From positions 1 through 13,293 of the forward strand of contig JARRRI010000048.1 in NCBI GenBank assembly GCA_037380845.1: DNA of 13,293 bases, read 5' to 3'. The notes under the pieces were generated by a model. That model saw only the letters and a program-made list of their open reading frames with translations. It did no database searches and was not told the origin of the DNA. The DNA comes from Candidatus Sulfobium sp. GTDB taxonomy: Bacteria; Nitrospirota; Thermodesulfovibrionia; Thermodesulfovibrionales; UBA6898. The translations under genes and the position numbers were made by a program. Below, one piece after another: positions 1 to 1,708 of this stretch (positions are counted from its first letter, which is position 1; every line of letters begins with the position of its first letter).

Positions 1-4
1 TCGT

Positions 5-100
5 CCTCTGGCAGCTCGGCCGTCTCCTGCAAGTATAACTCTACTGAAGACCCGCCGCTTTCCGCCCCATCCTCGCGGAGGGTTTGGCTTTGTCGAGAGA
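5..100 (-). ncRNA. Cyclic dinucleotide riboswitch aptamer, c-di-GMP-I (GEMM-I) class
   Basis: The reverse complement reads CUCUCGACAAAG-CC-AAA-CCCUCC-GCGA-GGAUGG-GG-C-GG-AAAGC-GGC-GGGUCUUC...GGAGAC-GG-CC-GA-GCUGCC-AGAG. It shows P2 with a GNRA (GCGA) tetraloop, the AAA internal loop, the CGGAAAG junction, P3 with GGUCU/AGAC, the terminal GCUGCC, and P1 CUCU/AGAG. Matched by eye to the GEMM-I consensus. Confidence 0.9.
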
Positions 101-116
101 GCCTTTATTCGATCTT

Positions 117-145
117 ATTATTGCCGCAGAAGACGTTCCTGTCAA
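117..145 (-). promoter_or_regulatory. Sigma70-type promoter driving the riboswitch leader
   Basis: Minus strand TTGACA (145-140), 17 nt spacer, AATAAT (122-117). The predicted start near 110 is about 10 nt before the aptamer. Confidence 0.75.
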
Positions 146-343
146 GTTGAAGTTCGAATGATGAGGGCATCTAATAATTTATTGTTTATCATCGGTCTCG
201 GGAGGGTTAATGAAAAAACAGCCAACCAGAGGCGCTTTGTTTGCAACGGAAGACAATCGGGCAGATTTCCTCTCCCGGATGGCCACATGCAGGTGGGGGG
301 GCGGCCACGAAGGAACCGCGCCAGCGAACGAAGTTATGGCCGC

Positions 344-1312
344 TCAAAATCCCGTAATTCCAGGACCTGTCTTCTCTTCCGAGCAGGCTATCCTGACTGC
401 TTCTCTGAAGGGTGTCTTGTCGACTTTAACAAAATCATCTATCTTGTTTTCCCTGCAAATCACTTCGCTCTTCAAACCTTCTATGAGGGGATGGGCTACG
501 CCGGAGGGTACAGGAGTTACGAGGTCGACCCAGTATGCAGAGAGGATGGGAGTCAAGAAGGGCACCCGGAAAATGATCCGCTTCGCCAGTCCTCGTGCCT
601 CTGCGTACTGCTGCATCATCTCACGGTAAGTGAGTATATCAGGTCCCCCTATATCGAAGGATTTTCCGGCTGTCTCCGGGTCAAGAAGGCATCCCGTCAG
701 ATATGCAAGGACATCCCTGAGCGCTATGGGCTGGATCCTCGTGTCTATCCACCTCGGGCATCCCATGACCGGCAGCCTTTCCACCAGATATCTGAGCATC
801 TCGAAGGAGGAGCCGCCCGCCCCGATAATGATGGCGGCCCGGAGGACGGTTGCAAGGGGTTTTCCCGAGGAGAGTATTCCGGCAACCTCCGCGCGGCTCT
901 TCAGATGTTCTGAGAGGTCCTCGTGGGTCTCCCCCAGTGCCCCCAGATAGATAACTCTCCTGAGCCCGGTCCGGCCAGCGGTCTCCGTGAAATTCCGCGC
1001 GGCTTTCTTGTCCTTCTCGGCGTACTCCGCATTTCTGAACACTGTCCTGCCACTCATGGAGTGGACGAGATAAAAGGCCGTGTGGATATGCTGAAGAGCG
1101 TCTTCCAGCCCTTCGCCGCTTATGAGGTCTCCCTGTGCGACTTCGCAGTCCGCCCCTCTGGGAATGAGCCCGGAAGTACGAGACCGGTTACGCGCGAAGA
1201 TCCTCATTCTGACTCCCTTCCCGTAAAGCTCGGGGATCAGTTTTCTGCCTATGAACCCTGTTGCGCCAAGTATGAGTACCCTGTCATCCGGAGCGATCCG
1301 AAGGCCTTCCAT
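344..1312 (-). CDS. NAD(P)H-binding atypical SDR / epimerase-like protein (YbjT/NmrA-like)
   Basis: Rossmann motif LILGATGFIG, plus AFYLVHSM, RVIYLGALG, SEHLKSRAEV, LRAAIIIGAGGSSFEMLRYLVERLP and FDIGGPDILTY, all typical of YbjT-like proteins. 322 aa, with no long C-terminal extension. Confidence 0.88.
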   Translation of the reverse strand: MEGLRIAPDDRVLILGATGFIGRKLIPELYGKGVRMRIFARNRSRTSGLIPRGADCEVAQGDLISGEGLEDALQHIHTAFYLVHSMSGRTVFRNAEYAEKDKKAARNFTETAGRTGLRRVIYLGALGETHEDLSEHLKSRAEVAGILSSGKPLATVLRAAIIIGAGGSSFEMLRYLVERLPVMGCPRWIDTRIQPIALRDVLAYLTGCLLDPETAGKSFDIGGPDILTYREMMQQYAEARGLAKRIIFRVPFLTPILSAYWVDLVTPVPSGVAHPLIEGLKSEVICRENKIDDFVKVDKTPFREAVRIACSEEKTGPGITGF

Positions 1313-1327: not shown

Positions 1328-1708
1328 TCAAAGGATGCCTACTGCCGCTCCGGTCATGCATGTGGCCAGGGTGCCGGCCACTATGGACCTCAGCCCAAGC
1401 GAGATGATTTCGCTCTCCCTTTCAGGAGCCATTCCCCCGAGCCCGCCGATCATTATGCCCAGGCTGCCAAAATTTGCGAAACCGCACATCGCATAGGTCA
1501 TTATGAGGCGGCTCCTTTCGCTCAGTGCCCCCGAAGGAAGATGAGCAGGGTCGACATAGGCGATAAATTCGTTCAGGACAGTCTTGGTACCCATCAACGC
1601 GCCCGCAGTGAAGCGCGCCCTTCCAGCCACTTCCCTTCTCTTTTCGCTAAAGAGCCACGCCAGACCGGCCAGGGCAAAGAGGCCCGTGAGGCTCTGAATC
1701 CTCAGCAT
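1328..1708 (-). pseudogene. NupC/CNT-family nucleoside transporter with a large in-frame internal deletion
   Basis: The N-terminal CNT segment (QSLTGLFALAGLAWLFSEKRREV) is joined directly to the C-terminal segment (LMGTKTVLNEFIAY...TYAMCGFANFGSLGIMIGG...APER...AGTLATCMTGAAVG). 126 aa versus roughly 400 aa for bacterial CNTs. Confidence 0.8.

Follow-up and report, generated by a model that had tools for sequence, protein, structure and literature searches.

The left end of a 13,293-nucleotide (nt) stretch of Candidatus Sulfobium DNA carries the promoter and aptamer of a GEMM-I riboswitch. The stretch, hereafter the window, is the whole of contig JARRRI010000048.1 (C48), and it ends 5 nt past the aptamer. 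We consider it likely that this RNA, on the minus strand, is a riboswitch for cyclic di-GMP (c-di-GMP) with a G20/A47/C92 pocket (numbering of the Vibrio RNA Vc2), that it has its own sigma-70-type promoter, and that it works as a transcriptional ON switch for an oxidoreductase gene. The gene that it turns on is most likely the flavin adenine dinucleotide (FAD)-dependent, geranylgeranyl-reductase-like oxidoreductase gene on the neighbouring contig C11. The original prediction, made from the sequence of the window, had placed a complete aptamer directly behind a TTGACA-17-AATAAT promoter, had seen in it a scaffold typical of sensors of cGAMP (3',3'-cyclic GMP-AMP), and had left the choice between c-di-GMP and a dual ligand undecided. 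The parts of the switch that lie in the window are as follows, all on the minus strand.

140..145: -35 hexamer TTGACA, found by motif search and identical in the orthologous leader of the same-genus genome G001.
117..122: -10 hexamer AATAAT, separated from the -35 hexamer by 17 nt; the two hexamers give 11/12 matches and are conserved in G001.
6..97: complete GEMM-I (c-di-GMP-I clan) aptamer, from the RF03167 and RF01051 matches and covariation.
62..87: P1a hairpin with outer pairs 87/62 and 86/63, from the cmscan alignment and covariation.
13..59: P1b hairpin, which in the other paralogues is shorter by about 13 nt, from cmscan and the paralogue alignment.
88: G, equivalent of Vc2 G20 (alpha-base recognition); model position 10, directly 5' of the outer P1a pair, alignment column 12.
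61: A, equivalent of Vc2 A47, where the RF03167 consensus has G; model position 37, directly 3' of the outer P1a pair.
11: C, equivalent of Vc2 C92 (pairs with the beta guanine); model position 75, directly 5' of the P1 3' strand.
1..21: 5' arm of an intrinsic terminator, formed by the P1b and P1 3' strands including C92, from a terminator search, the minimum free energy (MFE) fold and contig continuity.

A scan of the whole window with cmscan and Rfam 15 gave a single match above gathering score, on the minus strand from 97 to 6. It covers the full model (1–80) of RF03167, c-di-GMP-I-GGC, with 60.2 bits (gathering score 59) and an E value of 2.1e-12. In this output a lower-scoring clan member was suppressed; RF01051 (c-di-GMP-I), run separately, matched C48:7–98 with 51.5 bits, against a cut-off of 35. 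The covariance-model check thus bears out a complete GEMM-I aptamer on this strand, with both matches above their cut-offs and the promoter at 145..117 where it had been proposed. The P1a stem comprises 6 base pairs (bp), 82..77 with 72..67, and contains a C80.U69 mismatch; its loop at 76..73 is GCGA, by sequence a GNRA tetraloop, which may dock into P1b as in the class.

Covariation provides an independent view of this fold. We aligned 15 aptamers: that of the window, the copy on C11, 11 further paralogues and two from G001. The C83 aptamer, truncated where its contig ends, and a sub-cut-off sequence on C20 (32.4 bits, degenerate 3' half) were excluded. When the Rfam structure was laid on this alignment, 93.0% of 314 cells held standard pairs, and double-sided changes occurred in 12 of 21 pairs, including all six pairs of P1a. 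None of 500 shuffles attained any of five covariation measures, a control that overstates the support, since the aligned aptamers are kin (paralogues and two orthologues). Stronger evidence comes from sliding the structure along the alignment, which left only 39–56% paired, and from the double changes throughout P1a, because kinship of the sequences inflates the shuffle control. Thus, the three-helix GEMM-I fold of P1, P1a and P1b is backed by covariation to an extent greater than chance.

The pocket bases point to the ligand. We take positions 10, 37 and 75 of the RF03167 model to correspond to Vc2 positions 20, 47 and 92. The text of PMC6140456 supports this correspondence. The resulting coordinates, 88, 61 and 11, are identical in the cmscan alignment to those first proposed, and the A47 and C92 columns are invariant across all 15 aligned aptamers. 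By this alignment, the pocket is the canonical c-di-GMP triad G20/A47/C92. In the literature, G20 is described as contacting the Hoogsteen edge of the alpha guanine and C92 as pairing with the beta guanine, while cGAMP riboswitches have A in place of G20 (PMC6140456). Wild-type Vc2, with G20, binds cGAMP with a dissociation constant of 10 uM, against picomolar for c-di-GMP (PMC6140456). Moreover, replacing A20 by G in the GEMM-Ib aptamer of Geobacter metallireducens Gmet_0970 yields an RNA selective for c-di-GMP where the parent selects cGAMP; this engineered variant has reported on c-di-GMP in vivo (PMC6456294). The ligand of the window aptamer is therefore likely to be c-di-GMP, judging by its pocket, whereas the dual specificity that the original prediction also allowed is unlikely because of the A20G precedent.

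The scaffold, by comparison, says little about the ligand. This genome has 15 GEMM-I aptamers on one common scaffold, 13 of them with G20 and two with A20 (C17:44464–44544 and the truncated C83:1–59, both confirmed by cmscan). Five relatives gave 23 matches, of which 20 were read, with a regular expression and by visual inspection; G20 is present in 13 of these and A20 in six, and one is unclear. Within the genus, A20 and G20 copies are near-identical around the pocket, save for an AG/GA exchange at positions 19–20. The scaffold thus appears to be a lineage trait that serves both pocket types and is uninformative on ligand; since A20 and G20 aptamers both use it, it is not the mark of cGAMP sensing that had been suggested. 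The Geobacter framing of the organism falls away as well, the relatives being Candidatus Sulfobium and Thermodesulfovibrionales metagenome-assembled genomes (MAGs). With 15 matches here and two to seven in each of the five relatives, whose counts are lower bounds given their fragmented assemblies, the GEMM-I family is expanded in this genome. The G20 aptamers precede genes for an NmrA-like protein, an SBP56 protein and a DUF134 regulator, and small lipoprotein-like open reading frames (ORFs), whereas the A20 copy on C17 precedes cytochromes. Gene context thus separates the two types in this genome, in agreement with the ligand assignment.

The promoter and the expression platform frame the aptamer on either side. 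The spacing of 17 nt between -35 and -10 is inside the 16–18 nt range of sigma-70-type promoters, and positions 1..500 hold two promoter-like sites against 0.4 expected from shuffles. In the G001 leader both hexamers are identical, with six of the 17 spacer bases changed. Transcription would start about 7 nt past the -10 hexamer, near coordinate 110. The expression platform, which had been left for retrieval beyond base 1, was recovered on C11. Here a terminator-like site at C11:175–212, followed by TTTTCATTTG, forms a 16-bp hairpin that shares 16 nt with the 3' strand of the aptamer; its 3' arm and U-tract lie beyond the window, at C11:197–222. The same terminator is present in the orthologous leader of G001. 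The MFE fold of the C11 leader (88–225), at -66.2 kcal/mol, includes the 16-bp terminator (z -4.95); the best fold with the aptamer pairs enforced has -42.0 kcal/mol, and the terminator hairpin alone has -31.3 kcal/mol.

Because these 16 nt are common to both, terminator and aptamer are mutually exclusive. With exclusive folds and the terminator in the MFE structure, the default state would therefore be termination, and an aptamer held by its ligand would give read-through, that is, an ON switch. In the mechanism that we propose, the downstream hairpin would, without ligand, capture the P1b/P1 3' strand including C92, and transcription would stop at the U-tract. With c-di-GMP bound, the aptamer would retain that strand, and polymerase would proceed into the gene for the 444-amino-acid (aa) oxidoreductase. 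The gene that follows probably belongs to the same transcription unit; it encodes a 301-aa protein with cyclic nucleotide-binding (cNMP-binding) and GAF domains. The Geobacter pilM ON switch is described as having the same strand-sharing architecture, with a terminator that sequesters the C92 equivalent (PMC9262584).

The link between the window and C11 is physical. The opening 195 nt of C11 are 96% identical to window positions 195..1, with eight differences, and the promoter part occurs at just these two contig ends in the whole genome. In Logan contigs from two marsh-metagenome runs, X1 (23,505 nt) and X2 (11,102 nt), C11:1–700 is spanned without a break. At C11 positions 70, 84, 111, 127, 164, 166 and 193, both contigs agree with the window, which accounts for seven of the eight differences; for the eighth, at position 12, the letter in these contigs was not reported. 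A further run, X12, gave no contig on this stretch, which counts neither for nor against the link. The window-type aptamer is thus joined to the terminator and gene of C11, as expected from the proposal that it controls a gene beyond base 1. Since single contigs join window-type letters to that terminator and gene, C48 and C11 lie side by side in a single locus, and their assemblies stem from strains that differ slightly. G001 has the same elements: one contig (its C6) ends with the epimerase ortholog, an extra ORF, the promoter, the aptamer (RF01051, 44.4 bits) and the terminator, and the oxidoreductase gene lies 31 nt from the start of another (its C42).

The metagenome contigs also provide the start of the gene. 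As assembled, C11 (259–285, locus L002) reads ATG-GCG-TGA and then has no ATG, GTG or TTG ahead of the FAD-binding GxGxxG motif. Logan contigs have G in place of C at 282 and T in place of G at 284, so that codon 283–285 is an in-frame GTG, 6 nt past GGAGG (272–276). They also have an extra T after position 197, at the terminator's top, and G instead of T at 227; the lower 12 terminator pairs are intact. The first ~300 nt of C11 thus look like a minor strain variant or an error-bearing sequence. A pseudogene or a recoded TGA had been considered for this gene; both were dropped given the GTG in the metagenome contigs.

With this start, the gene occupies C11:283–1617. Its product has no Pfam match at E <= 0.001. 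Among NCBIfam models it gives sub-threshold matches to geranylgeranyl-reductase families (TIGR02032, 39.6 bits with the cut-off at 158.8), and in the ESM Atlas it falls with NAD(P)/FAD-dependent oxidoreductase clusters, which we treat as a lead only. Its closest orthologs are in a Candidatus Sulfobium sp. MAG (85% identity) and in Nitrospiraceae bacterium Ngb-4 (84%), and further ones occur in several Thermodesulfovibrionales and Nitrospirota MAGs.

Several observations weigh against the riboswitch as we read it. Affinity may be weakened, since P1a has a C.U mismatch halfway along its stem, P1 contains the bulged A9, and the RF01051 score ranks 11th among the 15 paralogues of the genome. In the C11 copy the mismatched bases are instead a C-G pair; the metagenome contigs carry the window-type letter (C11 position 127). 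Nearest-neighbour energies favor an alternative fold of the RNA (-35.8 kcal/mol) over the consensus aptamer fold (-19.4 kcal/mol), and the active fold would therefore need ligand and tertiary contacts that such energies leave out. Upstream of oxidoreductase orthologs, no GEMM-I was found in six genomes of other genera or in eight further named records, including that of Ngb-4; these are eight of ten named loci, the other two (L056 and L060) matching L019 and L022 by coordinates and being covered in the scan of other genera. The pairing of oxidoreductase and GEMM-I thus appears to be recent and restricted to this genus. Ren et al. (2015) reportedly found that specificity in this fold can also shift through changes elsewhere than in the pocket. 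Finally, ligand binding, transcription start and termination are predictions; among the sequencing runs listed, no RNA run contains the stretch.

The A20 aptamers of the lineage open a view on a second signal. The copy at C17:44464–44544 (minus strand; locus L008:1500–1580) stands ahead of ORFs at C17:42588–44309 and 41654–42397. The first encodes a protein of 573 aa that bears PF09698, the Geobacter CxxxxCH...CXXCH motif, together with PKD and cytochrome c3 signatures; the second encodes a 247-aa protein with four paired-CXXCH motifs (PF09699). CarboxypepD_reg is also present in this pair of genes. Orthologous A20 aptamers are present in the same-genus genomes G002 and G003 (L088, L089). In Geobacter, cGAMP riboswitches precede multihaem cytochromes (PMC6456294), an analogy that suggests a cGAMP-controlled cytochrome regulon in this Nitrospirota lineage. 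A second A20 aptamer, at C83:1–59 (minus strand; L016), is the one cut by its contig end.

The genome search for Hypr-type GGDEF enzymes, which the original prediction had also proposed, gave two candidates. GGDEF domains occur at 14 places. At the position of Ser348 of GacA, two have Ser, ten have Asp and one has Asn; that on C44 has Asp with a degenerate catalytic motif. The C30 ORF (L044:1480–2799, minus strand) encodes a 439-aa GAF-GGDEF protein with GHLVGS...RYGGDEF and Ser at the Hypr position. Its best match in the PDB is 6d9m, the Hypr domain of Geobacter GacA, with 177 bits against 119 for the next, and the Ser is aligned; by sequence, it is a candidate cGAMP synthase. On C22, an ORF (L055:718–2043, plus strand) codes for a HAMP-GGDDF protein of 441 aa in which the Hypr position is likewise Ser; this protein matches PDB entries weakly, and it fits the description of Geobacter GSU1937 (PMC8835794). 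These candidates argue for a separate cGAMP branch that acts through the A20 aptamers, and against dual sensing by the G20 aptamer of the window.

With these elements at hand, the ligand can be weighed against alternatives. We regard it as unlikely that the window aptamer senses cGAMP, alone or along with c-di-GMP, with specificity set by the lineage scaffold as well as by position 20. Same-genus A20 aptamers do use a near-identical scaffold (L083, L088, L089, L092, L094 and the copy on C17 of this genome), two encoded GGDEF proteins have the Hypr Ser, one of them best matching 6d9m, and several natural GEMM-Ib RNAs are bispecific (PMC6140456). However, position 20 is G in the window aptamer, and its gene context is unlike that of the A20 copy; the bispecific RNAs listed in PMC6140456 all have A20, and in the Geobacter cGAMP scaffold A20G confers c-di-GMP selectivity (PMC6456294). 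An assignment to the c-di-GMP-I-GGC variant, whose ligand is possibly other than c-di-GMP, follows from RF03167 being the top clan match (60.2 bits, gathering score 59), yet we hold it to be extremely improbable. The base that distinguishes the families stands 3' of the outer P1a pair. At this position the RF03167 consensus 'GACGCGAAgCc' has G, the RF01051 consensus 'GACGCAAAgCc' has A, and the window has A, which leaves a blank in the RF03167 match line at model position 37. We read 'GGC' in the family name as standing for positions 20/47/92, as reportedly in Weinberg et al. 2017. Genome-wide, all 15 GEMM-I matches hit both models and nine pass the RF03167 cut-off, while every one of the 15 aligned aptamers has A47; the model thus cross-hits canonical aptamers. 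For this reason the RF03167 label appears to mislead, its higher score reflecting likeness of scaffold rather than a variant pocket. A canonical c-di-GMP aptamer thus stays the reading that we prefer.

Other alternatives concern the function and the target of this copy. If it were decaying, without switching, the gene would be under the promoter and a constitutive terminator alone. The C80.U69 mismatch and the A9 bulge would fit such decay, as would the mismatch being the majority letter in the metagenome contigs and the lack of a canonical start codon in the C11 variant of the gene. We nevertheless find this very unlikely: all invariant columns of the family alignment are retained, the score is 16 bits over the RF01051 cut-off, promoter, aptamer and terminator are conserved in G001, and the GTG at C11:283–285, 6 nt past GGAGG, is a normal start. 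The eight differences in an overlap of 195 nt that is just 96% identical could also mean that C48 and C11 are separate paralogous leaders, with the window copy controlling a different, unassembled gene. The chance of this is very slim, as in two runs a single contig carries window-type letters through into the terminator and gene of C11, just these two contig ends in the genome carry the promoter part, and G001 shows the same order, with epimerase, riboswitch and terminator at one contig end and the oxidoreductase at the start of another. The riboswitch that we favor is thus a functional c-di-GMP switch, one locus with the oxidoreductase gene of C11.

A broader proposal would unite both pocket types. 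Under it, a sulfate-reducing Nitrospirota lineage would have a two-signal system in which one scaffold toggles between G20 and A20, by an apparent AG-to-GA swap at positions 19–20, to serve two regulons, a large one for c-di-GMP and a small, Geobacter-like one for cGAMP that comprises a Hypr GGDEF and multihaem cytochromes; the window aptamer would be one arm of it. We give this proposal a small chance. In its boldest form, the window aptamer, weakened by its P1a mismatch, would keep enough affinity for cGAMP to integrate both signals at the oxidoreductase gene. A literature search combining Nitrospir* with Hypr GGDEF, GEMM-I and cGAMP riboswitch found no treatment of such a module, a review mentioning Nitrospir* and Hypr GGDEF once each. 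Among the best 8 of 7,489 matches that were listed, no paper contained 'Sulfobium', which is weak evidence. A survey of Hypr GGDEF proteins, reportedly that of Hallberg in 2016, was outside the literature searched for a Nitrospirota cGAMP module.

The surroundings of the GEMM-I elements include further genes. Past the cNMP-binding/GAF gene of C11 lies a second G20 GEMM-I aptamer (C11:2562–2640), then two ORFs that match no family and a CHASE2-adenylate/guanylate cyclase; C11:1575–6468 is a nucleotide-signalling gene cluster under two riboswitches. On C20, a degenerate GEMM-I-like sequence (1100–1178, minus strand; 32.4 bits, below the cut-off, with its 3' half unconserved) lies upstream of a gene for a replication-associated protein (C20:43–753, minus strand; PF23343, REP_ORF2-G2P), which may indicate a mobile-element context. 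Upstream of the switch in the window stands one gene that marks the locus.

344..1312, minus strand: NAD(P)-binding epimerase/NmrA-like protein of 322 aa, outside the switch, from Pfam; its G001 ortholog also precedes the riboswitch.

A plus-strand ORF at 158..913 that overlaps this region has no Pfam family, and was set aside as an antisense shadow of the epimerase gene. Beyond the epimerase gene, a 126-aa ORF at 1328–1708 (minus strand) matches only the C-terminal half of a Na+-dependent nucleoside transporter domain (profile 106–213 of 213), and is probably a gene remnant. In genome G017, a group II intron domain match (RF00029, 45.2 bits; L030:1646–1718, minus strand) adjoins the epimerase ortholog.

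For the riboswitch class itself, very little changes: the window RNA is an ordinary, previously unannotated addition to a well-understood class. Its predicted target is less usual, since a FAD-dependent, geranylgeranyl-reductase-like oxidoreductase gene is not of a type usually linked to c-di-GMP. There is also a practical consequence. In Rfam, clan competition gives the 'GGC' label to aptamers of this lineage whose pocket is the canonical G/A/C, so automated annotation would mislead. More broadly, Hypr-GGDEF/cGAMP signalling ahead of multihaem cytochromes, studied in Geobacter and few other groups, is suggested for marsh Candidatus Sulfobium-like Nitrospirota. This module of Hypr GGDEF, A20 riboswitch and cytochromes is of more interest than the window aptamer, and merits a study of its own.

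It is useful to compare the window RNA with systems that are already known. With Vc2 of Vibrio cholerae, the type example, and the RF01051 c-di-GMP-I family it shares the three-helix junction, a GNRA-capped P1a, the G20/A47/C92 pocket and a score above the cut-off. It departs from the RF01051 consensus in having C-G/C-G as the outer P1a pairs (G-C/C-G in the consensus), a GYRA-type tetraloop (GCGA), a long P1b and the C.U mismatch in P1a, and from the Vc2 type in its predicted ON logic, in which the 3' strand of the aptamer doubles as an arm of the terminator. The RF03167 GGC variant gives the best bit score and has a very similar consensus, but the family has G where the window has A47. The A20G variant of Gmet_0970 likewise places G20 on the kind of scaffold that is also used for cGAMP sensing, and it is reported to be c-di-GMP-selective and usable as an ON reporter in vivo (PMC6456294); it is, however, an engineered Geobacter point mutant, whereas the window RNA is natural and from Nitrospirota. 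Finally, the GEMM-Ib cGAMP switches of Geobacter (Gs1761/pgcA and pilM) are transcriptional ON switches whose terminator captures the 3' strand of P3/P1 and with it the C92 equivalent (PMC9262584), as we propose here, and at the level of the lineage the resemblance extends to A20 copies ahead of multihaem cytochromes. In contrast to these switches, the window aptamer has G rather than A at position 20, and the gene downstream of it encodes a FAD-dependent oxidoreductase rather than a cytochrome, pilus or polysaccharide function.

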